52,123 nt of DNA from Coleofasciculus chthonoplastes F2-STO-03 (GCA_040222015.1 JAVJWO010000016.1:1-52123); one strand, 5' to 3'; positions 1,521 through 36,560 are shown, counted from the stretch's first letter. Numbers and translations are program-made. The notes: generated by a model not told the origin, from the letters alone.

Positions 1521-4289
1521 TTAAATAATCCCTGATCCTAGAGCCTTGCGCTTCAATACCACAACCCGAGAACGCGCTCCTTTATCTAAGGTGAAATCTA
1601 AACCTGCTCGAAAGATTTCTGGCATATAATATCGCGGCGTATCATCTTTAGCTCGGTCTTCATAAACCACTCCGATTTCTTCCAGCATACTTAATGTTGA
1701 TGGTTCGATATCAAAATTCTCTAAGGTAAAGGGAACTCGCATTTCTTTTAAATCTTTAGACGAGAGAGTATCAACCCATGTTCTAAAGGCGGGATATTCC
1801 TCTTTGGCTTCTTTCACCTTCTTCTTACTACAGGGTTCTAAAGCACGACGAATCGCTTGGGGGGGTAAGAGACGGCTGGTAGACCACTTTTCAAATTGAA
1901 CGTTTTTGGCATTTTCTATGGTTTCATCAGCAGCATGATATAAGAAGCGCACAATATCTCTAGCTTGTAGCCTTCCCTTAAAATCAGTCAGAGCAGCAAA
2001 TACCCAATTCGGTGTATAAGCTTCTTTTGACTTATCAGAACCCAGCTTTTTGCCCCATAAATTTTCCAGTTTTTCAATGAGATGTTCGCGAGTCATGCTA
2101 TCTAGTTCTGATTCATCGGCATCGATGACTTGCGCTTGACTGCAAACCCAAAAAACTAGATTCATAAAAGAATCAGCATCCCAATATAAATCATAAGACC
2201 CGTAGAGATTTTCAAATTGAGATAAATTCTGGGTGATGGCGTAACGGACAAAATCACGCCGGATAAAAATAATTAAGCCTAAGTTATTTTTTCTAATTTC
2301 TGATAACCGGGCTGGTAGACGAATCAGAGACTCAATCGCGGCTTGCTGGATTGAACTAGAAGATGCGTCAGAAAAAATATCTTCTAGTCCATCAAATAAA
2401 AAGATTACCCGCAATGATTTCTGCTTCAGGGCATTGTTAACATCATTAAAACTCCAATAGTCCTTTGTTTCTGGATCAAGACCGACAATTCTGGCAATCT
2501 CTTTAATCCAAAATTGTGTCCATTCCTGCTTACCCCAGTTTGGGTTGGCAAGTGCTGATTCAATCTTATCGTTATATTCTGACTGAGAAAACTCTGAAAA
2601 ACTATTACCTGAAGCAGATATCACTTCATTTCTTGCCTCTTGAATAATTTTAATGGCATTATCTCGAAGATTCAGTGATTGCAGCATAGGAAATATATAA
2701 GTTTTCTCCGCTGACTCATTTGTTTCACCCAAAACCCGCTGAATAAAGTTCTCCCAATATTTTAAACGGGACAACTGAATATAGTTAAACGTTTTACCTG
2801 AACCTTTGGAGCCAATTGAAACGACACGCGGTAACTCATCCCGAAAAGTCGTGGCTAAGTTTTTCAACGGTTCAGTGACTAACAAGTCCTCTCCCTGTCC
2901 ACTTTCAGCATATTCATACTGTTGACACACATCTCGGAGACGACGCACTGCTGCCAAGGGATCAGAGTTCTGAGTTGTTGGTAAATCTGAGCGCTGTTCT
3001 TTCGGTTTGATTAACTGACTCTCTGCCCACTCCTGAGCCACTTTCATGACTGAAGTAGGGCTAAGTTTTGAACGAGCATCCTCCCAATTATTCAAATAAA
3101 GTAATTCCTGGGTAAAATCAGTTTCCTTGATGTTTAAACGAGTTTGATAAATATCACCTTGAGACTGAACATAAGCCGCCTGAAATATAGATAAAGCTTC
3201 GTCAAAAGCAGGAAGTGATTTAAGTTCGGGTGTGAGCAGAGTAATCAATACTAGAGGATCATAGTAGTTTTCCTCTTCAACATCTGTCTCCGGAGGAGCG
3301 GTGTGACTTAACTGCTGCAAGACCAAACTCGAACCATTGACGGATTGGTCATTAATTGTGGTTACGATAAACCGTTGGATTCTCGGATCAAAAATAATCG
3401 GACTCGATATTTCACTTAAACCAGAACGCAGGTCAATGAGTACATAATCCGCATTGACAGCATGACCTAATTGAGATAAAGCATTCCCAAATTCCCAGGC
3501 TCCATCAATAGTTCTGACTAAATGTTCGGGTAGAATCGGTGTATCGAGTAATTCGCGATCATCTAGACAAGCCGGAAGAAAGTAAATTGTCGATTTTCCG
3601 TCCCGTTTAGGAGATTTTTTTAGCTCTTTCGCAAAAAAGGAAAGCACGGGTTCTGGTTCCAGAGATGAAGCATGGTAAGCTTCCAGAAAATTAATGAAAG
3701 AAACAGTCGGTTGTTGTTTTTCGGAGCGATTCCAGTAAGTTAGACCGGGTGCTTCTAAATCAGCATCGACGACTAAGAATGTTTTGGCTTGATTGAGTTC
3801 TCTGGCTCGCTCAAGTAAAGCAAAAAGATGGGCGGCTAAGTGCAGGGTTCTGCCTACCCCTCCTTTGAAAGAATAAAAGGCAACTAATTGGGGGCTGGTA
3901 CTGGGATAGGCTTCTGGGATATGAAAATTTTTTGGAACTTCAGTCTCTGGCTCACCATTATTTTGCAAGTAAGCTACTTCTTCCCAGAAGGGACGAATCG
4001 GACTATCGGTATCGTCGCTTTCTTCCTCGTGAATAAACTCTACAGGTAAAATTTCCTCACCCAAGTCCAGTTGAATGAAATTATCCTCTTTTTGATACCA
4101 ATCTCCAAACCATTCTTTGAGAGCTTGCTTTGCCTGATCTCGATAGTCCTCAGACAATATGCCAATTTCTATGGCATCAGAAAAACTATTAATTCTGACG
4201 ATTCCCTCTGGCAGTTTGGTTCCATAGTTTGTTTCTCGACGAATAACTCGTCGAACATCCAACCACGTCAAGAGTCTCATCGCTTTCAT
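1521..4289 (-). CDS. 922-aa dual-NTPase: ParA/MinD-like domain with a KGGVGR variant Walker A, plus a C-terminal P-loop ATPase
   Basis: Domain 1: FYSFKGGVGRT, VVDADLEAPG, VLIDLRSG. Domain 2: GSKGSGKT Walker A, IFLFDGLED Walker B, IFIRRD. Confidence 0.8.
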   Translation of the reverse strand: MKAMRLLTWLDVRRVIRRETNYGTKLPEGIVRINSFSDAIEIGILSEDYRDQAKQALKEWFGDWYQKEDNFIQLDLGEEILPVEFIHEEESDDTDSPIRPFWEEVAYLQNNGEPETEVPKNFHIPEAYPSTSPQLVAFYSFKGGVGRTLHLAAHLFALLERARELNQAKTFLVVDADLEAPGLTYWNRSEKQQPTVSFINFLEAYHASSLEPEPVLSFFAKELKKSPKRDGKSTIYFLPACLDDRELLDTPILPEHLVRTIDGAWEFGNALSQLGHAVNADYVLIDLRSGLSEISSPIIFDPRIQRFIVTTINDQSVNGSSLVLQQLSHTAPPETDVEEENYYDPLVLITLLTPELKSLPAFDEALSIFQAAYVQSQGDIYQTRLNIKETDFTQELLYLNNWEDARSKLSPTSVMKVAQEWAESQLIKPKEQRSDLPTTQNSDPLAAVRRLRDVCQQYEYAESGQGEDLLVTEPLKNLATTFRDELPRVVSIGSKGSGKTFNYIQLSRLKYWENFIQRVLGETNESAEKTYIFPMLQSLNLRDNAIKIIQEARNEVISASGNSFSEFSQSEYNDKIESALANPNWGKQEWTQFWIKEIARIVGLDPETKDYWSFNDVNNALKQKSLRVIFLFDGLEDIFSDASSSSIQQAAIESLIRLPARLSEIRKNNLGLIIFIRRDFVRYAITQNLSQFENLYGSYDLYWDADSFMNLVFWVCSQAQVIDADESELDSMTREHLIEKLENLWGKKLGSDKSKEAYTPNWVFAALTDFKGRLQARDIVRFLYHAADETIENAKNVQFEKWSTSRLLPPQAIRRALEPCSKKKVKEAKEEYPAFRTWVDTLSSKDLKEMRVPFTLENFDIEPSTLSMLEEIGVVYEDRAKDDTPRYYMPEIFRAGLDFTLDKGARSRVVVLKRKALGSGII

Positions 4290-4747
4290 GTATTTCTTAA
4301 TTCTCCTTTAATCCACTCAGCTATCTGAAACAGCATTGACTCTAAATCTTTATCTTGGATTTGAGCATTTTTTTCAAAACTGTGACCATATCTCCAGAGT
4401 TGGTTAATTTGATCGGGAGTCAAGTTTCTTTGTTGAGGAGAACCTTGAATTTTAATATCTTTTAGCCGAATGTGAGCAGGTAGCCTCAAACTACCCTTGA
4501 CTCCCAAAGTATCTAGTAACCGATTGATGTCATGCCCAAATTCAGCAATACTGGCATCAGTACAGTCTCTCTGGCGTCGGCGCATCAGAATTGCCTTGAG
4601 TCCACACTCAACCGCGTAAAACAATAGCAGACGATGAGGATTGGTTCTGGGGGTTTTGCTGGACGAAGCCGATAGGTTTTCTCGCCAAGCTTTTTCTATT
4701 TCTCTTCGCGTGAATGGGATCACGTTACCCTTTAACGCTACAGTCAA
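4286..4747 (-). CDS. HEPN-like domain protein
   Basis: LLLFYAVECGLKA, FGHDINRLL and WRYG match the E..LKA / HD..L / RY pattern of HEPN domains. Its stop overlaps the next start (ATGA). Confidence 0.65.
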   Translation of the reverse strand: MTVALKGNVIPFTRREIEKAWRENLSASSSKTPRTNPHRLLLFYAVECGLKAILMRRRQRDCTDASIAEFGHDINRLLDTLGVKGSLRLPAHIRLKDIKIQGSPQQRNLTPDQINQLWRYGHSFEKNAQIQDKDLESMLFQIAEWIKGELRNT

Positions 4748-4902
4748 TCACTCCAATTTTAGTCTAGTTTAGTGTGGTGTGATAAACATGCAGCAGTTTT
4801 TTGTTAAAGAGGTAAGTAGTCGGACAATACCCAACTAGACTAGCGTTGGGGCAAAACCTTGCTACCCAATTAACGATGACCTATGAACTATGAACCCTAA
4901 AT

Positions 4903-6351
4903 TCAAATCGGAATTTTAATCACAAACTCTGTTCCTTGACCCGGTGTGGAATTACAGGTAAACGTTCCGCCATGTTTTTCAACAATGATTTGATGGCTAA
5001 TTGACAATCCTAAACCCGTACCTTTCCCCGGAGGTTTAGTGGTAAAAAAAGGCTCAAAGATTCGCTGTTTCAGTTCGTCATTTATTCCGGGTCCGTTATC
5101 TTTAATGCGAATAACCGCACGCGCCCCAGAATATTTACCATTATCAATTAATTCTGTGCGAATCCAGATGGATGGCGTTATAGTTTGCTCACTGTCCCCA
5201 TTAGCGGGTTGAGAACGCATATCTTTTAGGGCATCAATTGCATTGCACAGCACATTCATAAATACCTGATTTAACCCACAAGAATAACAAGTGACTAAAG
5301 GCAGTTTGCTATAATCCTTGAACACTTTAATTTCTGGCTTGTTTCCTTTGGATTTTAAACGATAGTAGAGCATGACTAGGGTGCTATCTAGCCCTTGGTG
5401 AATATCTATCGATTGCTCTTCGTTTCCTCCCGATAGAGTTTTGAGGGAATAAACAAGTTGGCGCAGACGTTCAGCCCCCATTTGCATAGATGACAGGGTT
5501 TTTGGAAAATCTTTGAGGAGAAAATCTAGATCAATTTCTTCGGCTTCCTGTTGAATTTCCGGCGCAGGTTGGGGGTTATATTTGTGGTAGAGTTGGAGTA
5601 ACTTTAATAAGTCTGTGGTATATTGTTGAGCATGGGGAAAATTGTTACATAAGAAATTAACCGGATTATTAATTTCGTGGGCAACTCCAGCTAACAATTT
5701 GCCTAAGGTAGAAAGATGTTCTTTTTCGATCAACTGCTGTTGCGTCTGGCGCAGTTGATTTAATGTCTCCTCCAGTTGTTCGGCTTGGGCTTTGTATTTT
5801 GCTTGGGATCGCCGCAAGGATTCTTCGGTAACTTTGCGCTGGGTAATATCTGTGACGAACCCTTCATAATAGAGTAATTTCCCTTCCTGATCGCGCACCG
5901 CCCTAGCATTCTCACAAATCCAGATGATCTGCCCATCTTTTCGATACACCTGGGATTCAAAGTCTGTGACTGAATCGTGCGATCGCAGTTTCTCAATAAA
6001 GTCCCGGCGTCGATTCGGATTGACATAGAGTTGTTGTCCAATATCGGTTAAAGTTTCCAATAGTTCCGCTGGGGATGCATAACCATAAATCTTTACCAGC
6101 GCTGGATTGCAGTCGATAAAATGCCCGTCTGGAGTTGTTTGAAAGATGCCCTCGACGGCCCCCTCAAACATACTACGATACTTCTTTAGGGCTAACTCCA
6201 TATCTTGACGTTCTGGAATTTGATCCGCTAATTCCTCATTCAACGCTTGTAACTGCCGAGTTTGCTTAGCCAAAGTAGCAGAAAAGGGTTTGTCTGACTC
6301 CGACCAATCAGGTGGACTGTTCAGTAAACGGTCGCTGCTGGGAAGTAACAT
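4903..6351 (-). CDS. PAS/PAC sensor histidine kinase
   Basis: PAS (GIFQTTPDG...DITQRK), H-box GVAHEINNP, N-box NAIDA, DNGPG and GKGTGLGL. Confidence 0.92.
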   Translation of the reverse strand: MLLPSSDRLLNSPPDWSESDKPFSATLAKQTRQLQALNEELADQIPERQDMELALKKYRSMFEGAVEGIFQTTPDGHFIDCNPALVKIYGYASPAELLETLTDIGQQLYVNPNRRRDFIEKLRSHDSVTDFESQVYRKDGQIIWICENARAVRDQEGKLLYYEGFVTDITQRKVTEESLRRSQAKYKAQAEQLEETLNQLRQTQQQLIEKEHLSTLGKLLAGVAHEINNPVNFLCNNFPHAQQYTTDLLKLLQLYHKYNPQPAPEIQQEAEEIDLDFLLKDFPKTLSSMQMGAERLRQLVYSLKTLSGGNEEQSIDIHQGLDSTLVMLYYRLKSKGNKPEIKVFKDYSKLPLVTCYSCGLNQVFMNVLCNAIDALKDMRSQPANGDSEQTITPSIWIRTELIDNGKYSGARAVIRIKDNGPGINDELKQRIFEPFFTTKPPGKGTGLGLSISHQIIVEKHGGTFTCNSTPGQGTEFVIKIPI

Positions 6352-6481
6352 GGGCGCGTTGCTAAGCTTATATGGGCATTAATACTAGCTTCTAGGATTC
6401 GGATCACGTTATCAGTGATATGTAGTCCGCAATACTGGTGATTTCAATCACTAAATTGAGTGAGATGAGTCACGTTAAGCG

Positions 6482-7438
6482 CTAATTCTCTTGACTGCCC
6501 TTGATTGTACGGACTGTTGCTAAAAATTGACTCAGGAACGGTAACCCGCCAATGGCAGGTAAAAAGTAACGCGAGGTACATAGCAATCCCAAGGCGGCGG
6601 CGGTTGCGGGGTCTAAATAGTCCTGATAAAACAAGACTAATGCGGCATCGCGTGTACCAACTCCGGCAAAGGTTAGAGGTAATAATCCGGCTAAAATGGC
6701 GAGGGGAGACAAGGCTAGATTGACGAGAAATGGAGTCGTCGCCTTCAGCGCTAGGATAAAAAACCAAATTTGCAATAAGTGTAAAAACCAAATAAAAATC
6801 GACGTTCCGGTAATTTTGAAAAGCTGACGTTGATCGCGCCAAAAATAGTCATGCATATCGCCCCAAGAGCCTTGCATTGTTTCTAATTTGGAACGCATTT
6901 TTTTTGGGGCAATCTTGCGAGCCACGATAAAGAAAAAATAAGCAAATTTGCGAGACGCTAAGAGACAAATTCCCAAGATTAAACCCACGCCCACCGCCAT
7001 CGTCATCAGCCAAAATAGCCAATCTTTCGGTTCATAGAGTAATAAACCAAAAACACACCACAACAGCAGGGATAACAGATCACAAGCTTTTTCAAAAATC
7101 ACCAGTGATAACGAAAGAGTCCCACTTAAATGACCGCGCTGTTTCATGAAATAAGCTTTGGCAATATCCCCCATTTTAGATGGCAGCACCATATTTAAGA
7201 CACTTGCCGCTAAGATTAACCGATTTGCCTCAAAAAAGCCCAAGCGAGATCCACTGGGCATGAGTTGTTGCAACCGCCAAGAGGTGAATAACGTCAGGGG
7301 AACAACCATTCCCAAGCTGACAGGCATCCAGACGCGATCGCTATTTTGAAAAACGGCAACGAGTTCGGGAAAATCGATTTTTGAGTAAATCACTGCCAGG
7401 ATAATTAGGCTGACGGCGATTGAAATTAGTCGTTTCAT
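6482..7438 (-). CDS. Lysylphosphatidylglycerol-synthase-TM / flippase-like membrane protein
   Basis: Multi-TM protein with RLQQL, N.VLPSKMGD, EK..D and LPLTFAGVGTRD motifs. Confidence 0.8.
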   Translation of the reverse strand: MKRLISIAVSLIILAVIYSKIDFPELVAVFQNSDRVWMPVSLGMVVPLTLFTSWRLQQLMPSGSRLGFFEANRLILAASVLNMVLPSKMGDIAKAYFMKQRGHLSGTLSLSLVIFEKACDLLSLLLWCVFGLLLYEPKDWLFWLMTMAVGVGLILGICLLASRKFAYFFFIVARKIAPKKMRSKLETMQGSWGDMHDYFWRDQRQLFKITGTSIFIWFLHLLQIWFFILALKATTPFLVNLALSPLAILAGLLPLTFAGVGTRDAALVLFYQDYLDPATAAALGLLCTSRYFLPAIGGLPFLSQFLATVRTIKGSQEN

Positions 7439-27956: not shown

Positions 27957-29000
27957 TTAGATATGGCGAGAGCGCCCACTAAACACCCGTTCTAGCTGTT
28001 TGAAGTTCTCAAGAACACGACCTGTGCCTAAAACCACACAACTTAGGGGATCAGCCGCTACATGAGTCACAATACCTGTTTCGTGACTAATCAACGTATC
28101 TAGCCCTTTTAGTAAGGCACCACCACCCGCTAACATGATGCCTCGATCAATAATATCGGCAGCGAGTTCAGGTGGTGTCCGCTCTAAAGTCCGTTTTACC
28201 GCATCAACGATGACTGAAAGCGGTTCGGACATACTTTCGCGAATTTCGGGTCCCTTGATACTCACAGTTCGCGGTAAACCAGACAGCAAGTGTAAGCCGC
28301 GTACTTCCATGGAGAAATCATCGTCCTCATGAGTCGGGTAGGCTGAACCAATCTGAATTTTTATTTCTTCAGCCGTTCGCTCCCCAATCACCAGGTTATG
28401 GACTTTTTTCATGTACTGGGTGATCGATTCACTCAGTTCATCACCAGCGACCCGTACCGATTCGCTCAAAACGGTACCTTGTAAACTGAGTACCGCGACT
28501 TCTGTCGTCCCACCACCGATATCAATAATCATATTACCGGTTGGTTCTGCCACTGGCAGCCCCGCACCGATGGCAGCAGCAACAGGTTCATCGATCAAGT
28601 ACACATCTCTGGCACCTGCTTGAGATGCAGCTTCCATAACTGCCCGCCGTTCTACACCGGTTACACCACTGGGAATCCCAATGACAATCCGAGGTTGAAC
28701 TAAAGTACGCCCTTCATGAACTCGCCGGATAAAATGCTTGAGCATGAGTTCGGCGGTATCGAAGTCAGCAATCACACCATCGCGTAAAGGACGCAAGGCG
28801 ACCACGTTACCTGGAGTTCTGCCCAGCATTTTTTTGGCATCCTCTCCCACCGCTAGTGGCACTTTTTCATCTTGGTCCATGGCGACGACAGAAGGCTCCT
28901 GGAGTACGATGCCTTTGCCAGATACATATACTAAAGTATTAGCTGTACCTAAATCGATACCCATGTCCCGGGATAAGGAAAAGCGACTGAAAATACCCAC
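27957..29000 (-). CDS. mreB: Rod shape-determining protein MreB
   Basis: DMGIDLGTANT, RPLRDGVIAD, DIGGGTTE and LAGGGALL. GTG at 29000 preferred as start. Confidence 0.97.
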   Translation of the reverse strand: MGIFSRFSLSRDMGIDLGTANTLVYVSGKGIVLQEPSVVAMDQDEKVPLAVGEDAKKMLGRTPGNVVALRPLRDGVIADFDTAELMLKHFIRRVHEGRTLVQPRIVIGIPSGVTGVERRAVMEAASQAGARDVYLIDEPVAAAIGAGLPVAEPTGNMIIDIGGGTTEVAVLSLQGTVLSESVRVAGDELSESITQYMKKVHNLVIGERTAEEIKIQIGSAYPTHEDDDFSMEVRGLHLLSGLPRTVSIKGPEIRESMSEPLSVIVDAVKRTLERTPPELAADIIDRGIMLAGGGALLKGLDTLISHETGIVTHVAADPLSCVVLGTGRVLENFKQLERVFSGRSRHI

Positions 29001-29290
29001 TTGTTTATACGCCCCCAAGGTCGAATGTTTCTATGTATAACAAACAATGTATCTGAACTGTAACCGAGGTGGATTCTATTACGTTTTTTTGGCTGAGTCT
29101 AGTGAAGTTGATAAAGTCATCGCTATTCATCTTTGAAAACCAAGCTGAAAGTATCATTCAGACGACAAAATTGCTGATCCGGAGAAAGTCAAGGTCACAA
29201 GCGAGGGTGAATCACGGCAATTGGCATGCCTCCAGTAGGGCTTAAGGGATTGTGGACAACGGTATAAATTCGCTAAACTAATTACAAATC

Positions 29291-29304
29291 AGTACAAGGG
29301 TACT
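29291..29304 (+). promoter_or_regulatory. Cyanobacterial LexA box upstream of ssb
   Basis: AGTACAAGGGTACT fully matches RGTACNNNDGTWCB, ending 6 nt before the ATG at 29311. A candidate -10 TAAACT lies at 29274-29279. Confidence 0.8.
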
Positions 29305-29310
29305 AAAAAA

Positions 29311-32300
29311 ATGAGTCTCAATGTAGTTAATTTAGTTGGTCGAGTGGGCGCAGACCCAGATGTCAGGTATTTCGGTGCGACCCGTTAGATGGGAAAGTTA
29401 CCCCCTTGGGTAACGTGCCATCTGCGTAGATTATGACAACCAATGTCATAAGTCTACGACAACTGGGTGTTTGGGTAGGTGAGGGTCAAACCAATTCCTA
29501 CCGTCGTGATGCAGACGAGGCAACACTCCCACTGGAGAGACTGACTATCAACCTGGTGAAGCGGGGTGTAACGAAGGTAATCACAAACCCATTGTGAAAT
29601 CCCTTCTAGCCGAGATGAGTACGAGTAAGGTTAACTGAATCCATGTCTGAACCGTCGTAACTGATAACAGCCTACATGGGTTATTGGCTGAGCCAAAAGG
29701 CAAGGATAAGGGCTGGGCAACTCGAAGTTTGACCCAGGGCATCCCCAAAGAAACCCGGCGGATAGTGGAACTCTAACCTCATCGCCAAGCAAACACCCGG
29801 AACGGGGTAATCCAGCGTACATCTCTCGGATTGGTCGATAACCGAGTAGGCAGTCAAGCCGCATGATTACGTTGGACAAGATTGACTCAGAAGCAAACGC
29901 CTTTAGGAAACTAAGGGATACGCCCACGGAGTCACGGTTATTTGGAGATGGAGAATCAAGTAAGAGTCAATAAGTTATGAACACGGTTAAACCGATGTAT
30001 GGATGGGAGACAATTAACTGGACAAAAGTTCAGCGAAATGTCTTCAAGCTCCAAAAGAGAATCTATCGAGCCTCAGAACGTGGCGATGTCAAGGCTGTCC
30101 GTAAGTTGCAGAGGTTGTTGACGAACTCAAGGGATGCCAAACTCCTGGCTGTTCGGAAAGTGACCCAAGACAACCGTGGTAAAAACACGGCAGGAGTGGA
30201 TGGGGTAAAAAGACTCAGGAATAAGCAGAAGCTAAATCTAGCCGAAAGCCTAAAGCTGAATGACAAAGCCCAACCCACCCGAAGAGTCTGGATACCTAAG
30301 CCAGGAAAGGACGAAAAACGTCCCCTTGGAATCCCAACGATGAGAGAAAGAGCCAATCAAGCGCTAGTCAAACTAGCTCTTGAACCAGAATGGGAGGTAA
30401 AGTTTGAGCCTAACTCATACGGGTTCCGACCAGGACGGTCTGCTCATGATGCGATCGCGGCAATCTTTAATGGTATCAACCAAAAGGACAAATACGTCCT
30501 AGATGCTGATATCGAGAAGTGCTTTGACCGAATCGATCACCAAAAGCTACTCGAAAAACTAAATACTTACCCTAAACTTAGACGGCAAATCAAAGCATGG
30601 CTAAAGTCCGGGGTAATGGATGGCAGGGAATTATTCCCAACCGAGGCGGGTACACCTCAAGGAGGAGTATTATCGCCCCTGCTGGCTAATATTGCCCTTC
30701 ATGGCTTAGAAATTCTCTTAGAAAGCCATTTCAACCGTCGAGTAGCAAATGGGAGAAAAAGAAAGGTCACGGTCATAAGATATGCCGATGACTTTGTGGT
30801 ATTGGACACCGAGCTTCAAGTTATCACTGAAGCCAAGGAGGTCACTGAAGCCTGGTTGAAAGAAATCGGGTTAAAGCTCAAAGACAGTAAGACCCGAATC
30901 ACCCAAACCTTCGTAAACCATGAAGGAAACATAGGTTTTGACTTCCTCGGATACAATATTAGCCAATATCCCTGTAGCAATAAGCAATCGGGATCAGTCG
31001 GCGGTACAGAGCAGAAGAGAGGCTTCAAAACTCTCATCAAACCCAGTAAAGAGGCAATAGAACGTCATCTAAAGACAATAGATGACATCATCCAAAGGAA
31101 CAAAAACTCAAGTCAAGAGAAACTTATCAATGTGCTAAACCCAATCATAAGGGGATGGTCAACAGACTACTCTACTGTCAACAGTAAGAGAGTTCTTGAT
31201 AAGATTGACAGTATCGTGTTCCAAAAACTCAGAGGATGGGCTTTCTTTAGAAGAAGCCGAAATCAAAATAACACTGATGTAATATCAAATTACTGGGGAG
31301 TCAACAGAGGGCTTGGGTGGAAATTTATAACACCAGACAATAAATACTGTTTGGAAAAGCATAGCCAGACACCCATCAAACGACACATCAAAGTCAAAGG
31401 GCAAAGAAGTCCATTCGACGGAGATTGCGTCTATTGGGGCAAACGGCTATCCAGCTACCCAGGACTCAAGAAAACCACCCGCTCATTGCTCAAAAGGCAA
31501 AACGGGAAATGCAACGAATGTGGTTTAAGCCTCACAATAGATGACGTGATTGAAACACATCATCGAGATGGCAACCGATCAACAACCAACTTGAAAATCT
31601 AGAACTGTTACACGGACATTGCCATGACATCAAACATGCTAAAGGTATCTATTCACGACCAAATAACTGAGGAGCCGTGTGAAGGGAAACTTTCACGCAC
31701 GGTTCTGAATCAGAGGTAGGAAAGGTGACTTTTCTATCGACTGTAATAGTCGGGCAGTGTTTTGTGTACGTTATCACTAGCTGTGAATCGTCGCAGCCGC
31801 AACAGTGATAAGCCTGACTGGTTCAATCTCGAGCTTTGGGGGAAGACAGCAGGTGCGATTCGTTTCTCTGAAACCGTTGCTGCATAAAGCATCCGGGGGA
31901 TAGAGAGCAAGGAAAAAATCCTTGATAACTGAACGGAACATGAAGGTGAAAGTCCTTCCCCTCTAGCAACTGAGGTGAAAGCATATCCCTCATCTCAAGT
32001 CCTGGTAAGACTCAAAGATGCAAGCAAGGGATAAACGGCAAAACCCAGATAACTCAATCTGGCTCATGCCTAGCAAGAGACTCAAGAGTAACGAAAGTGA
32101 AAGTGCGCTTGAATCGTCGTCATTGCCAATGGGGAAATGAGTACAGGGATAAAACCCACCCCAAGCCAAAAGGCAAGGATAAGGATCAGCAAGTCTGCTG
32201 TTGACTGATCAGTTGCTCAAATAAACCCGGCGAATAGCACGGCTCTAAAAGCCTCAAAATGACCGTTCGGAACGAAGTAACTTCCAAAAAGCTCTTGTGA

Positions 32301-34405
32301 GGTCGATTACACAAGAAGGATACCATCCGCAAGCTTCAGGAAGTGGGATTGAGTCAGAAGCGAACGCCCTGTGTAATGGCAGGGATATGCAAACAGACTC
32401 ACGGTGTATTGGAAGAAATAGTCTTGAGTGAGAGTAATGTCTAAAACGCTGAACAATCAGACGGTGGAATGGAACAAGCTGCCCTGGAAACAGATTGAGC
32501 GCAGAGTGTTCAAGCTCCAAAAGAGAATATTTCGAGCCTCGCAACGTGGTGACGTTAAAGCTGTTCGTAGACTCCAGAAGACATTGATGAGATCCTGGTC
32601 AGCCAAGTGTCTTGCGATACGAAAAGTTACACAGGATAACCGAGGCAAAAGAACTGCTGGAGTGGATGGATTGAAGAATCTGACACCAAAGCAAAGGATG
32701 AGCCTGGTAAGCCAATTAAAGGTAACAGGGAAAGCCCTTCCTGCCAGAAGAGTCTGGATAGACAAACCTGGTAGAGACGAAAAGCGTTCATTGGGAATAC
32801 CCACAATGCAAGATAGAGCGAAACAAGCCATTGTAAAGCTCATACTAGAACCCGAATGGGAAGCTAAATTTGAGTCAAACAGTTACGGCTTCAGACCAGG
32901 TAGGTCAGCCCATGATGCTATCGAGGCAATATTCCAGCACATTAACCGCAAAGAAAAATATGTGCTAGATGCAGATATATCGCAATGTTTCGATAAAATC
33001 GACCACATCACCCTCTTAGAAAAACTCAATACATTCCCTGTCCTACGCCGTCAAATAAAAGCATGGCTTAAAGCAGGAGTTATAGATAGGGGAACCTTCT
33101 CAAAAACAGAGAAAGGAACACCGCCATCGGGTGTGATATCGCCACTACTAGCCAACATAGCCTTACACGGTTTTGAGGATTACATTTCAAGCTTTAAAAA
33201 GGCTGGAAGGTATCCCAATGGTCAGGCTAAAAAGTCGAGCGCAACAGTGATCAGATACGCTGATGACTTTGTAATACTGCACGAATCTAAAGAATTTGTG
33301 GAGTACCTACAACAAAAGGCGGAAGAATGGTTGAGCAGAATGGGACTAGAATTGAAGGCTAGTAAAACCAGGGTATGCCATACATCCGAAGGATTTGATT
33401 TTCTCGGATTTAACGTAAGGCAGTATAAGGTAGGTGCATACCGAGCTGCAAAAGTGGGGAAAGCCGGACGGCAAGAACCCATAAACCTTGGTTTTAAAGC
33501 ACTCATCAAGCCCAGCAACAAGGCAATTAAACAGCATCTAGACGAAATCAAAAGAATTATCAAGGCACATCACGGTTCACCCCAAGAAGCCTTGATAAGT
33601 AGATTAAATCCGGTCATAAGAGGCTGGTGCAACTACTATTCGTCTGTATCGAGCAAAGACACATTCTCTGAATGTGGAAGCTTGGTATTCTCCATGTTAA
33701 AAGCCTGGGCAAAACGCAAGTGTACGAGACGTAATTCCTCTGAGATCATCCGAAAATATTGGAGAACAATAGGAGGAGACAATTGGGCATTTGCTACCGA
33801 AGATGGACACAAACTAATCAAACACCAAGAAACGCCCATAGTCAGGCACAATAAAATACAAGGTGTAAGTAGTCCATTCGACGGAAGAGATTCATACTGG
33901 AGTCTAAGAACAAAGAGCTATCCTGGATTAATTCCTAGAGGAAAGAAACTTTGGGAACGCCAGAAGGGAAAATGCGAATACTGTGGATTATTGTTCAGGA
34001 ACGAAGACGTGATGGAAGTCGATCACAAAACACCTCCCTTGTTTAGGGGGATAAGATACGATGAATAACCTACAGCTTCTACACGCGCATTGTCACGATG
34101 TCAAGGGTACGCATGAAAAGCGCCAATCCACCGAGGAGCCGTGTGCGGTGAAAGTTGCAAGCACGGTTTTGAAAGAGAGGGTAACGAAGTAATTCGTTAT
34201 TCGACTCGAACAAGTGGCGGCAAATTACGTGCGGAAGGGGAGCTTGATTGGGATTCAAGGAGCGCTGAAGATTGATCCGTTAACCACGCGGGATGGTCAC
34301 AATTATCACAAGCCCGTTATCCGGGTGGATCGAATGGATTTGTTAGGATCTAAACGAGATAATGATCCCAGCACGGTCGATCACTACAGCGAGACAGAGT
34401 TCTAA
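29311..34405 (+). CDS. ssb: Single-stranded DNA-binding protein, 120 aa, join(29311..29374,31748..31852,34212..34405)
   Basis: The spliced product is MSLNVVNLVGRVGADPDVRYF-E-SGSVLCTLSLAVNRRSRNSDKPDWFNLELWGKTA-E-VAANYVRKGSLIGIQG...YSETEF*, an uninterrupted 363-nt frame. It sits between mreB and SIMPL as in other cyanobacteria. Confidence 0.95.
29375..31747 (+). mobile_element. Group II intron 1 (IIB / CL-like) in ssb
   Basis: 5' end GTGCG. EBS1 CGAAGT (29723-29728) pairs with exon ATTTCG; EBS2 CTGATA (29661-29666) pairs with TGTCAG. Domain V at 31672-31705, then domain VI ending ...AAT. Confidence 0.95.
29977..31602 (+). CDS. Group II intron reverse transcriptase/maturase; HNH domain frameshifted
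   Basis: RVT_N, RPLGIP, SYGFRPGRS, GTPQGG, YADD and domain X. The HNH tail NLELLHGHCHD continues in another frame to TGA at 31670. Confidence 0.93.
   Translation: MNTVKPMYGWETINWTKVQRNVFKLQKRIYRASERGDVKAVRKLQRLLTNSRDAKLLAVRKVTQDNRGKNTAGVDGVKRLRNKQKLNLAESLKLNDKAQPTRRVWIPKPGKDEKRPLGIPTMRERANQALVKLALEPEWEVKFEPNSYGFRPGRSAHDAIAAIFNGINQKDKYVLDADIEKCFDRIDHQKLLEKLNTYPKLRRQIKAWLKSGVMDGRELFPTEAGTPQGGVLSPLLANIALHGLEILLESHFNRRVANGRKRKVTVIRYADDFVVLDTELQVITEAKEVTEAWLKEIGLKLKDSKTRITQTFVNHEGNIGFDFLGYNISQYPCSNKQSGSVGGTEQKRGFKTLIKPSKEAIERHLKTIDDIIQRNKNSSQEKLINVLNPIIRGWSTDYSTVNSKRVLDKIDSIVFQKLRGWAFFRRSRNQNNTDVISNYWGVNRGLGWKFITPDNKYCLEKHSQTPIKRHIKVKGQRSPFDGDCVYWGKRLSSYPGLKKTTRSLLKRQNGKCNECGLSLTIDDVIETHHRDGNRSTTNLKI
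31853..34211 (+). mobile_element. Group II intron 2 (IIB / CL-like) in ssb
   Basis: 5' end GTGCG. EBS1 CTGCTG (32195-32200) is perfectly complementary to the exon-2 end CAGCAG. Domain V at 34136-34169, then domain VI ending ...AAC. Confidence 0.95.
32437..34068 (+). CDS. Group II intron reverse transcriptase/maturase; altered PQG motif, HNH domain frameshifted
   Basis: RVT_N, SYGFRPGRS, GTPPSG (in place of GTPQGG), YADD and GWCNYY. The HNH tail NLQLLHAHCHD is out of frame and preceded by a TAA at 34052. Confidence 0.92.
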   Translation: MSKTLNNQTVEWNKLPWKQIERRVFKLQKRIFRASQRGDVKAVRRLQKTLMRSWSAKCLAIRKVTQDNRGKRTAGVDGLKNLTPKQRMSLVSQLKVTGKALPARRVWIDKPGRDEKRSLGIPTMQDRAKQAIVKLILEPEWEAKFESNSYGFRPGRSAHDAIEAIFQHINRKEKYVLDADISQCFDKIDHITLLEKLNTFPVLRRQIKAWLKAGVIDRGTFSKTEKGTPPSGVISPLLANIALHGFEDYISSFKKAGRYPNGQAKKSSATVIRYADDFVILHESKEFVEYLQQKAEEWLSRMGLELKASKTRVCHTSEGFDFLGFNVRQYKVGAYRAAKVGKAGRQEPINLGFKALIKPSNKAIKQHLDEIKRIIKAHHGSPQEALISRLNPVIRGWCNYYSSVSSKDTFSECGSLVFSMLKAWAKRKCTRRNSSEIIRKYWRTIGGDNWAFATEDGHKLIKHQETPIVRHNKIQGVSSPFDGRDSYWSLRTKSYPGLIPRGKKLWERQKGKCEYCGLLFRNEDVMEVDHKTPPLFRGIRYDE

Positions 34406-34408
34406 ACG

Positions 34409-35140
34409 TTAGTAGCTAATTTGCAGGGTTACGGATGCCTGTACCTCTTGCTCACCACCAATAATGGGTGTCGGAGCATTTTGGGCAAAGGACTCCGCCC
34501 TGCTCATCAGCGGCATGGGTGGAGACGGTGGTGTGGCACCATTAATTTGAATGTTCACGATATCTTGACGGGTGAGGTTCAAGGTATTTAACACCGCATC
34601 GGCTTGCTGTTGGGCATCCTGAGTGGCTTCTCGTAGTGCTTGTTTTTGAGCCGTGGCGATCGCACTTTCGGGGGCGGTAAAGCTAATCGAGTCGATGCGG
34701 GTAGCACCAGCAGCCACAGCATCATCCAAAAGGCTTCCCGCCTGTTCTGTGGGAATGCGGAAACTGACCGTGTTACTGGCAGAATACCCGATCAGGCGTT
34801 GCTGATTGTTCTCATAGCTATAGACAGGGTTGAGCTGGATACTGGTGGTTTGGAGTTGTTCAACATTACGCGATCGCAGCAACTCCACCACCGCCGCTGA
34901 CTGACGTGCCACTTCTTGTTGCACCTGTTGTGCTGTTTTTCCCTGTACCTCAACCCCTAACTGCACTCGGGTCAAAGTTGTGGGAATTCGTTCTACGCCT
35001 TGTCCGGTTACCGTGAGCGTTCGTAACAATCGCTCCTGCGCGATCGCGGGATTTATGCATCCGAGCATCACTAAACCCAAAACCCCAGCCATCACCTGTA
35101 ACTTTTTTTGGCTCAGAAAACGGGAACATAAATCTGTCAT
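34409..35140 (-). CDS. SIMPL (DUF541) domain protein
   Basis: Signal peptide, LTVTGQG, L.P.Y, GY.ASNTV and GEQEV.ASV...Y. Confidence 0.9.
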   Translation of the reverse strand: MTDLCSRFLSQKKLQVMAGVLGLVMLGCINPAIAQERLLRTLTVTGQGVERIPTTLTRVQLGVEVQGKTAQQVQQEVARQSAAVVELLRSRNVEQLQTTSIQLNPVYSYENNQQRLIGYSASNTVSFRIPTEQAGSLLDDAVAAGATRIDSISFTAPESAIATAQKQALREATQDAQQQADAVLNTLNLTRQDIVNIQINGATPPSPPMPLMSRAESFAQNAPTPIIGGEQEVQASVTLQISY

Positions 35141-35227: not shown

Positions 35228-36560
35228 TTAAAATTGTAGAATATTGTAGATATATAGTAAAATATTCGGAAGCTTCTTGGGATATTGTCGGGGGCGGCAT
35301 CGCCATGAAATTGGTCTCTAGACACGTCATCAACCGAAATCATGCCTACTGGCAGGAGGCAGATGCATTGGCGTTTAAGTCAAAGAATCTTTACAACAGC
35401 GCCAATTATTTGTGCCGTCAACACTTCTTTGAAACGGGTAATCGGTATACCCTACCAACTCTCTATCACTTAGTTAAAGATAGTGAGTCTTATCGAGCAA
35501 TGCCGACCAAAGTCTCGAAACAAATCATTAAAAAGCTGGTGGAGACTTGGAAATCTTATATGGCGGCTCACCAAGATTGGTTACAGCACCCAAACAAATA
35601 CAAGAGTGAACCCCGCCTTCCTCGATACAAGGACAAGGTCAAAGGTCGAAACATCGTCATTTACCATCACGAGTCCATATACAAGGCTGACCTAAAGCAA
35701 GGACGCTGCCACTTATCCATGAGTAATATCAGCGTTCCGACTAAGGTCTCTAATATTGTCGAGGCGCGGATTGTTCCGAGTTGCAACTGTTATATTTTGG
35801 AGATTGTCTATGAGTCACCCGATGTCAAGTTAATGAAGTCAGAGTGGGTAGCAGGGATTGATTTAGGTGTCGATAATCTAGTGGCTTTAACGTCAAACCA
35901 ACCCGGTTTTCAGCCAATGTTGGTTAATGGAAGACCACTTAAGAGTCGAAACCAATACTACAACAAGCTCAAAGCTTTCCTCCAAAGCAACCTACCAGCC
36001 GAAAGCCGAACCAGCAAACGGATACAGGCTCTAACCTATCACCGCAATCGATTTGTGGAAAACTACCTGCATAACACCAGCCGACTGATTGTAAATCGGC
36101 TCAAACAGCAAGGTATCGGCACTCTGGTTATTGGCAAAAATGAGGGTTGGAAACAACAGGTGAACATGGGTAAACGGAATAATCAAAAGTTTGTCAACAT
36201 CCCTCATGCTATTCTCATCAACCAGATAACTTACAAATGCGAACTGGCAGGTATCAAAGTAGTCATAATAGAGGAACGTTATACCTCCAAAACATCAGCT
36301 ATCGACCTAGAGCCTCCTTACAAGCAATCAAAATATGCTGGGAAGCGGGTTAAAAGAGGTCTGTTTAAGTCCAGAAGTGGACGTGTGATTAATGCGGACA
36401 TCAATGGAAGCATCCAAATTATCCGCAAGCATCTCCCAGAGGCGTTTACCGTCGAGGGAGTAGTGAGCTGCGCCGTGCAGCCGATACTGCTTAACCCAGT
36501 ATGAAAGACTAAACTACAAGTTTCTATAAGTTTAGTCTACACGGTTACAGTTTTTGTAAC
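35228..36560 (+). mobile_element. Non-autonomous TnpB-only insertion sequence (IS200/IS605/IS607 superfamily); ends approximate
   Basis: ATTGTAGA repeats at 35233 and 35243 upstream. Downstream hairpins at 36506-36538 and 36544-36560 are the likely omegaRNA/right end. No tnpA present. Confidence 0.65.
35305..36504 (+). CDS. tnpB: RNA-guided endonuclease TnpB
   Basis: SKNLYN, AGIDLGVDNL, LVIGKN..WKQ, EERYTS and NADING motifs. Confidence 0.92.
   Translation: MKLVSRHVINRNHAYWQEADALAFKSKNLYNSANYLCRQHFFETGNRYTLPTLYHLVKDSESYRAMPTKVSKQIIKKLVETWKSYMAAHQDWLQHPNKYKSEPRLPRYKDKVKGRNIVIYHHESIYKADLKQGRCHLSMSNISVPTKVSNIVEARIVPSCNCYILEIVYESPDVKLMKSEWVAGIDLGVDNLVALTSNQPGFQPMLVNGRPLKSRNQYYNKLKAFLQSNLPAESRTSKRIQALTYHRNRFVENYLHNTSRLIVNRLKQQGIGTLVIGKNEGWKQQVNMGKRNNQKFVNIPHAILINQITYKCELAGIKVVIIEERYTSKTSAIDLEPPYKQSKYAGKRVKRGLFKSRSGRVINADINGSIQIIRKHLPEAFTVEGVVSCAVQPILLNPV

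Follow-up and report, generated by a model that had tools for sequence, protein, structure and literature searches.

A short ssb gene of Coleofasciculus chthonoplastes split by two group II introns

Background

Group II introns of bacteria mostly stay out of housekeeping genes; the exception is formed by cyanobacteria that carry introns of the chloroplast-like (CL) type, as outlined in the accessible text of a review (PMC4424553). In Trichodesmium erythraeum, 17 spliced introns have been described in 10 host genes, with four of them in dnaN and three in nrdJ (PMC4143802, accessible text). Here we describe a locus in which ssb, a gene for a single-stranded DNA-binding protein (SSB), is divided into three exons by two such introns. 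It lies in a 52,123-nt stretch of Coleofasciculus chthonoplastes F2-STO-03 (GCA_040222015.1 JAVJWO010000016.1:1-52123), which we call the window; the genome carries the label G000, and the window contig is C16. The split gene had been proposed in an initial annotation made from the sequence alone. The background given there, that such introns avoid housekeeping genes and that Trichodesmium dnaN holds several of them, matches the two sources as cited.

Our preferred reading, to which we assign a probability of roughly 0.85, is that the locus is a functional split short ssb that has to be spliced twice, by maturase-assisted ribozymes, to be expressed. The gene would be transcribed as a precursor of ~5.1 kb, from which two different IIB-type introns would each be removed by ribozyme-catalysed splicing before translation, each probably helped by its own reverse transcriptase (RT)-maturase. 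Only after double splicing would a 363-nt frame be translatable into a 120-amino-acid (aa) SSB.

Results

Reconstruction of the coding sequence

We joined the three exons with a script, using their coordinates, and translated the product: the resulting 363 nt encode, in frame, a 120-aa SSB and a stop codon. The initial annotation had stated that removal of both introns restores a perfect 120-aa SSB, and this held, in that both junction peptides it named occur in the translation and the protein aligns without gaps to those of sister species. Its other structural claims were equally accurate. The introns split two glutamate codons, as G/AG at Glu22 and G/AA at Glu57, and account for 92.9% of the ssb locus (about 93% had been given). 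A listing of open reading frames (ORFs) of at least 60 aa reveals exon 3 alone, as a 63-aa ORF. Reading through the unspliced gene leads to a stop after 25 codons. The need for double splicing in the synthesis of this SSB also holds. Taken by themselves, the fragments encoded by exons 2 and 3 fall short of the PF00436 cut-off of 26 bits (scores in Table 1).

The ssb gene is uninterrupted in all eight sister species of the genus, and the spliced SSB is colinear with its product, without a gap, in each of them, at 92.5-95% aa identity. The alignments cover residues 1-120 in seven of these species and residues 8-120 in the eighth (G002), because its contig begins there. Among other genera, the ssb loci are colinear with the spliced SSB in 20 of 21 cases. 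The predicted intron borders fit far better than chance would allow. Codon differences between the spliced ssb and its counterparts in sister species are mostly synonymous (17-30, versus 6-9 non-synonymous), and the exons are therefore native and under purifying selection. No stop, frameshift or excess of non-synonymous change was found in any ssb exon.

The split gene encodes a short SSB of the Alr0088 type, consisting of an OB-fold only, and it adjoins mreB. The spliced protein ends in ...SETEF and lacks a linker. The uninterrupted orthologue in G001, which is 95% identical to it, scores 180.7 bits against the 121-position NCBIfam equivalog NF005674, for which the cut-off is 161.

Evidence from RNA libraries

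Of the 22 public runs listed, 20 hold part of the stretch, and four were aligned in detail. One of them, the metatranscriptome X13, contains a 151-nt contig (record 6, depth 2.1) in which 31781-31852 is joined to 34212-34290 with 0 mismatches. The contig skips exactly 2359 nt (GT..AC), which is intron 2, and the same run also holds pieces of intron 2 with 0 differences from the window. The contig differs at 10-17 positions from each of the seven sister species whose ssb is full-length, and we therefore attribute it to a G000-like strain. It is direct but thin support for the splicing of intron 2. Thus, of the two junctions that had been proposed for a check in RNA, the one between exons 2 and 3 was recovered; the intron 1 joint (29374>31748) was not seen in the four aligned runs, with exon 1 uncovered in X13. 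We infer that intron 1 also splices in vivo.

Ribozyme features of the introns

Both introns match the full RF00029 model (positions 1-77, gathering score 40), and in each case the match ends exactly at the predicted 3' splice site. Against RF04357, the model of plastid domain 5, intron 1 scores 56.7 bits, and intron 2, at 38.9 bits, falls under gathering. The initial annotation had also claimed that the exon-binding site 1 (EBS1) of each intron matches the upstream exon, and we find all six positions paired with the respective intron-binding site 1 (IBS1) in each intron. In a domain I alignment of nine introns, the EBS1 of both lies in the same hairpin loop as in seven related introns. The stem of this hairpin covaries (CTGGG/CCCAG versus CTAGG/CCTAG) among introns that share the position of intron 1, which we call site A; the position of intron 2 is site B. 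Candidates for EBS2 (ACCTGG at 29551-29556 and CTTCCCC at 31955-31961) overlap a predicted helix, covary poorly and allow several mutually exclusive pairings, and EBS3 was not located in either intron. From these features, both inserts are complete group II introns of the IIB or chloroplast-like type. They are different elements, with proteins that share 55% identity and with nucleotide similarity (67%) confined to a stretch of 840 nt.

Intron-encoded proteins

The intron-encoded proteins (IEPs) of both introns carry the Pfam domains RVT_N, RVT_1 and GIIM and score above the cut-off of 300 bits for TIGR04416, the NCBIfam equivalog of group II RT-maturases; their nearest named relatives are mostly cyanobacterial. 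In both, the HNH motif is broken, with its second half in another frame. The truncation of IEP1 is caused by a 1-nt deletion, and an extra C behind 31579, present in RNA-library contigs of related strains (runs X13 and X2), restores the frame. Relative to its copy in G024, a genome of another genus in the same family, IEP2 has two lesions, an indel and a TAA in the old frame; RNA contigs across this stretch (records 8 and 15) have no indel relative to the window. Over 29100-34699, a DNA contig from run X1 aligns to the window without a gap, with 61 positions differing, so the lesions are common to both; the qualification is that X1 may have been taken close to the source sample and lacks full independence. 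The HNH frame is mostly unbroken in the site-A relatives of intron 1, which dates the lesions as recent.

The introns look splicing-competent, as had been claimed, in their ribozyme features, EBS1 pairing, and RT and maturase domains, but that claim overlooked the HNH breakage in both IEPs, because of which endonuclease-dependent mobility is probably poor or absent. We infer that the truncated IEPs still act as maturases.

Two further variants of these proteins were seen elsewhere. The HNH frame of the IEP2 copy in G024 is open and reads EVEPKTP versus EVDHKTP in G000; with the motif's first His substituted, that endonuclease may be inactive too. The site-A intron proteins of G316 and G252 (L042 / L045) are 523 aa long and stop before any HNH motif, the domain having been lost outright.

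Table 1. Coordinates of the split ssb, its introns and the adjoining mreB (window numbering)
Feature	Coordinates	Strand	Description
mreB	27957..29018	-	divergent neighbour of ssb; Pfam PF06723 MreB_Mbl 496 bits
ssb exon 1	29311..29374	+	64 nt; codons 1-21 and G of Glu22; IBS1 ATTTCG at -6..-1
group II intron 1	29375..31747	+	2373 nt; GTGCG...AAT; site-A, ssb-specific lineage; orthologous introns at this site in 10 other genomes
intron 1 EBS1 hairpin	29713..29737	+	loop CGAAGT (29723-29728) versus IBS1 ATTTCG: 6/6 pairs, one G-U
IEP1 ORF	29977..31602	+	541 aa; RVT_N, RT (YADD 30781-30792), maturase X; TIGR04416 328.5 bits; ends inside HNH
IEP1 HNH remnant, out of frame	31581..31667	+	NNQLENLELLHGHCHDIKH...; by frame comparison
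intron 1 domains V and VI	31670..31747	+	RF00029 63.7 bits; AGC triad; bulged A 8 nt from 3' end
ssb exon 2	31748..31852	+	105 nt; rest of Glu22 to G of Glu57; intron 2 IBS1 = CAGCAG; PF00436 20.4 bits (fragment)
group II intron 2	31853..34211	+	2359 nt; GTGCG...AAC; site B
intron 2 EBS1 hairpin	32184..32210	+	loop CTGCTG (32195-32200) versus IBS1 CAGCAG: 6/6 Watson-Crick
IEP2 ORF	32437..34068	+	543 aa from ATG; RVT_N, RT (YADD 33256-33267), maturase X; TIGR04416 328.7 bits; ends inside HNH
IEP2 HNH remnant, out of frame	34055..34159	+	DTMNNLQLLHAHCHDVK...; TAA precedes remnant in that frame
intron 2 domains V and VI	34134..34211	+	RF00029 58.5 bits; AGC triad; bulged A 8 nt from 3' end, in domain VI
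ssb exon 3	34212..34405	+	194 nt; rest of Glu57 to stop; PF00436 23.8 bits (fragment)

Interrupted ssb genes in other cyanobacteria

The initial annotation had suggested that occupancy of the two sites be surveyed in cyanobacteria, and the survey shows that the case is not isolated. Our sample consisted of 401 genomes of the order. Protein-based searches of it miss introns without an ORF, and occupancy was judged from the length of the open frame around exon 3 for ~150 of 422 entries, so that the counts are lower bounds. At least 14 genomes from seven families have an interrupted short ssb, with at least four insertion points. All eight of the interrupted genes that are fully assembled yield an intact SSB of 120-122 aa when spliced in silico. 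In cyanobacteria, ssb is a recurrent intron target.

Searching the 401 genomes with IEP1 returned nine non-self matches at 63-72% identity (702-888 bits), the next matches being at no more than 59% and 657 bits. All nine of these relatives, like the intron of G000 itself, are located in ssb at site A (10 of 10), and the families represented are f1, f17, f32, f36 and f38. The three-exon structure of the G000 gene recurs in the ssb of G024: both introns interrupt it at identical bases, and its first two exons measure 64 and 105 nt. For IEP2, the 401 genomes hold no close relative (best 60%), only the G024 copy being close, at 90%.

Other genomes are interrupted at neighbouring positions. In G053 (L036, C122), an ORF-less group II intron of 1160 nt (3846-5005; RF00029 52.7 bits) occupies site A', one base upstream of site A (TTT/GAA); its 3' end differs, which points to a separate colonisation event. 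A further insertion point, site C, follows the G of Glu50; it is occupied in G236, partially in G359 and probably in G016, and in G317 only a remnant of the protein is left. In G317 (L128, G317:C364:11600-16600), ssb is interrupted at both site A and site C; the site-C intron, ~1390 nt long and with only the first ~80 aa of an IEP, is a derivative with a decayed ORF. G159 (L041, G159:C1:5668500-5676200) contains a twintron at 2086-6876, in which the ORF of a 4791-nt site-A intron is split by a second group II intron. The outer IEP is found in two pieces, aa 1-28 at 2732-2818 and aa 28-539 at 5181-6728; a separate IEP (3477-4994, 39% identical) and a separate domain V (5108-5184) belong to the inner intron. 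Bacterial twintrons are described as lying outside housekeeping genes in the accessible text of the review cited above (PMC4424553).

We also ran a wider search of genome contigs for relatives of IEP1. It gave 80 loci at 51-61% identity, missed the lineage at 63-72%, and placed ssb-like sequence near 2 of the 80. The most similar of the 80 proteins (61%) comes from the metagenome-assembled genome of Synechococcaceae cyanobacterium SM2_3_2 (L046), where the N-terminal ~48 residues of an SSB-like gene (2746-2895) lie directly upstream of a group II intron with its IEP at 3501-5117; here too an intron may reside in ssb, this time beyond the order that was sampled. One candidate for an interrupted ssb, in G272 (L039, G272:C120, 475-838), was rejected: the gene breaks into two overlapping frames near codon 53 without any intron, the result of a frameshift or a sequencing error.

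Intron gain and horizontal movement

Intron 2 of G000 and its counterpart in G024 are 89.1% identical at the nucleotide level, which is above the 71.2% of the ssb coding sequences (CDSs) that host them, so intron 2 was exchanged after the hosts diverged; intron 1 is 69.1% identical between the same two genomes. A similar comparison of G024 with G071, from a different family, gives 67.2% for the host CDS and 88.0% for the site-A introns, and the site-A intron proteins of G317 (f38) and G159 (f36) are 95% identical. That site-A introns are more alike across families than the host genes are indicates horizontal spread. Intron 1 of G000 is ~70% identical to every sampled relative, and it may either derive from an unsampled source or have been resident for a long time.

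Near-identical target sites are empty in eight of eight sister species. Over positions -16..+8, G001 and G005 are identical to G000 at site A, as is G004 at site B. With the sites empty in all eight, it is simpler to assume that the G000 lineage gained the introns, the alternative being loss in the other species.

Other introns and SSB genes in the genome

The G000 assembly comprises 7.72 Mb and is 99.99% complete. A blastn search of this genome found no further copy of either intron, and RF00029 matched the two ssb introns only, among the 150 of 412 first-pass candidates that were scored. A loose regular expression for domain V had nine matches; RF00029 hits coincide with just two of these, both on C16. 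The two ssb introns are the only group II introns found in the genome. A tblastn search with both IEPs returned one other RT, on C215; this weak match was rejected as an intron protein, being an RT-Cas1 fusion. The fusion protein (L131, G000:C215:2500-6500, 1526-3802) is 758 aa long, with scores of 130.5 bits for RVT_1 and 277.7 bits for Cas1.

The genome has an intact SSB gene elsewhere, on contig C72. Its 188-aa product has a proline-rich linker and an acidic tail (...DLDDIPF), and these features of a typical bacterial SSB (P/G-rich linker, acidic tail) are absent from the spliced 120-aa SSB. In Anabaena, the long All4779, not the short Alr0088, has been argued to be the major typical SSB, and Alr0088 has been shown to bind single-stranded DNA (Kirti et al.; PMC3976300, accessible text). 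The description of the split gene as a core replication gene is therefore overstated: it is an SSB gene, but of the short type consisting of an OB-fold only, with an intact long SSB elsewhere, and a core role is not established. Likewise, the search for another intact ssb, proposed along with it, turned up the long gene and no second short-type copy in the G000 assembly. Exon 3 of the short ssb is present in 391 of the 401 genomes of the order, so the short gene is not readily dispensable. Two sister species have a second short-type paralogue, 61% identical over 115 aa (L037, G002:C44; L038, G005:C211), with no counterpart in G000.

Neighbouring features

Convergent with ssb lies a gene for a SIMPL/DUF541 protein (34409-35140, minus strand; 174 bits), and weak tblastn traces place the same neighbour next to the ssb of G024. 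Two genes downstream of ssb is a TnpB-like ORF of 399 aa (35305-36504, plus strand; OrfB_IS605 68.7 bits, Cas12f1-like TNB 42.5 bits). At the start of the window, a HEARO RNA, the RNA of IscB/OMEGA-type elements, was found at 11-178 on the minus strand (RF02033, 90.5 bits). A scan of 28950-34600 for promoters and terminators found no plus-strand promoter-like site upstream of ssb; with 3 sites in total versus 7.9 expected from shuffled sequence, the scan is uninformative.

Discussion

Several observations weigh against a functional split gene. The junction between exons 2 and 3 rests on one contig of low depth (2.1) from an environmental RNA library, and because such libraries can contain DNA, the contig may be DNA of an intron-less allele from a near-identical strain. 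Other RNA-library contigs cross exon-intron borders (for example, 29345-30208 and 33987-34223), and these represent unspliced precursor or DNA. The EBS2-IBS2 pairing could not be confidently placed by eye in the domain I alignment, where the candidate pairings overlap a helix. Both IEPs end early, at 541 and 543 aa versus 562-583 aa in relatives. Finally, given the intact long SSB paralogue, loss of the short ssb might be tolerated.

If the short ssb had been inactivated by the two insertions and were not productively spliced, its role being covered by the long SSB, the locus would be a pseudogene. The canonical 188-aa SSB on C72, intact and of the type argued to be the major one in Anabaena (PMC3976300, accessible text), speaks for this, as does the truncation of both IEPs. 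However, the exons contain no stop, frameshift or excess of non-synonymous change, and the split architecture is kept, with intact but diverged exons, in G024 and six other fully assembled genomes, a persistence that calls for long-lasting selection for the spliced product. An RNA contig with exons 2 and 3 ligated exists, exon 3 occurs in nearly all genomes of the order (391 of 401), and a second short-type copy is missing from an assembly that is 99.99% complete. We therefore consider a pseudogene improbable. A second improbable reading is that the introns are very recent and fully active in homing, the endonuclease lesions being assembly errors. The mostly intact HNH frames of the site-A relatives would agree with this, as would the empty sites of the sister species, which make the gain recent on the scale of the genus, and the extra C in the X13 and X2 contigs, which restores the IEP1 frame and means that strains with an intact IEP1 exist. 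Yet the X1 DNA contig, not a fully independent source, shares the lesions; IEP2 has two lesions relative to the G024 copy, in a stretch where the RNA contigs have no indel; and the genome holds no second copy of either intron.

We thus favour a functional split ssb. Site-specific homing would have brought in both introns; the source of intron 1 would be a lineage specialised on the Glu22 codon of ssb, and intron 2 would have come by horizontal exchange with the G024 lineage or a common donor. With the endonuclease broken, they would now be largely immobile, splicing-only residents of an organelle-like kind, a description that fits the gene better than the term eukaryote-like used in the initial annotation.

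A broader reading, which we put forward tentatively and at somewhat less than even odds, is that the short cyanobacterial ssb may be the dedicated long-term home of a specialised intron lineage that moves horizontally across families, homing to Glu22, and that nearby Glu codons (sites A', B and C) have been colonised independently. In G000 both introns, their endonuclease function lost, would then be immobile, maturase-dependent and organelle-like. Synthesis of a near-universal DNA-binding protein would hinge on a pair of private splicing factors, and the arrangement might have a regulatory role. Should this be true, the locus would capture, in a free-living bacterium, a selfish retroelement on its way to becoming a fixed intron.

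The split ssb is a clean bacterial test system, in which a single small gene holds two introns, each with a private maturase. As these are the only group II introns found in the genome, the locus can be used to learn how a host manages introns in a conserved gene and how mobile introns decay to splicing-only residents. It also matters for annotation. Gene callers would report a 63-aa fragment or nothing, and surveys would therefore wrongly score a near-universal gene as absent or broken.

Comparison with known systems

Our literature search, which could reach neither the group II intron database nor the bulk of subscription journals, found no description of group II introns in cyanobacterial ssb. 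As in Trichodesmium, where split RNA reads have demonstrated it, a conserved gene of DNA metabolism contains several introns, and splicing is needed for its expression (PMC4143802, accessible text). Unlike here, ssb is not a host gene in that organism; the terms 'ssb' and 'single-strand' have 0 occurrences in the main text of that paper. Trichodesmium also has many introns, including ORF-less copies with shared maturases, whereas G000 has only two, each with its own RT-maturase. The ssb introns resemble splicing-only introns of organelles in having a housekeeping gene as host, in being single-copy, and in the loss of mobility functions with splicing kept (PMC4424553, accessible text). They differ from these in that the YADD motif is retained and only HNH is broken, that the host is free-living, and that the lesions are recent and absent from relatives. 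The locus is thus a known kind of system, comparable to dnaN and nrdJ of Trichodesmium, to which it adds an ssb-specific intron lineage, double occupancy and paired decay of the endonucleases.

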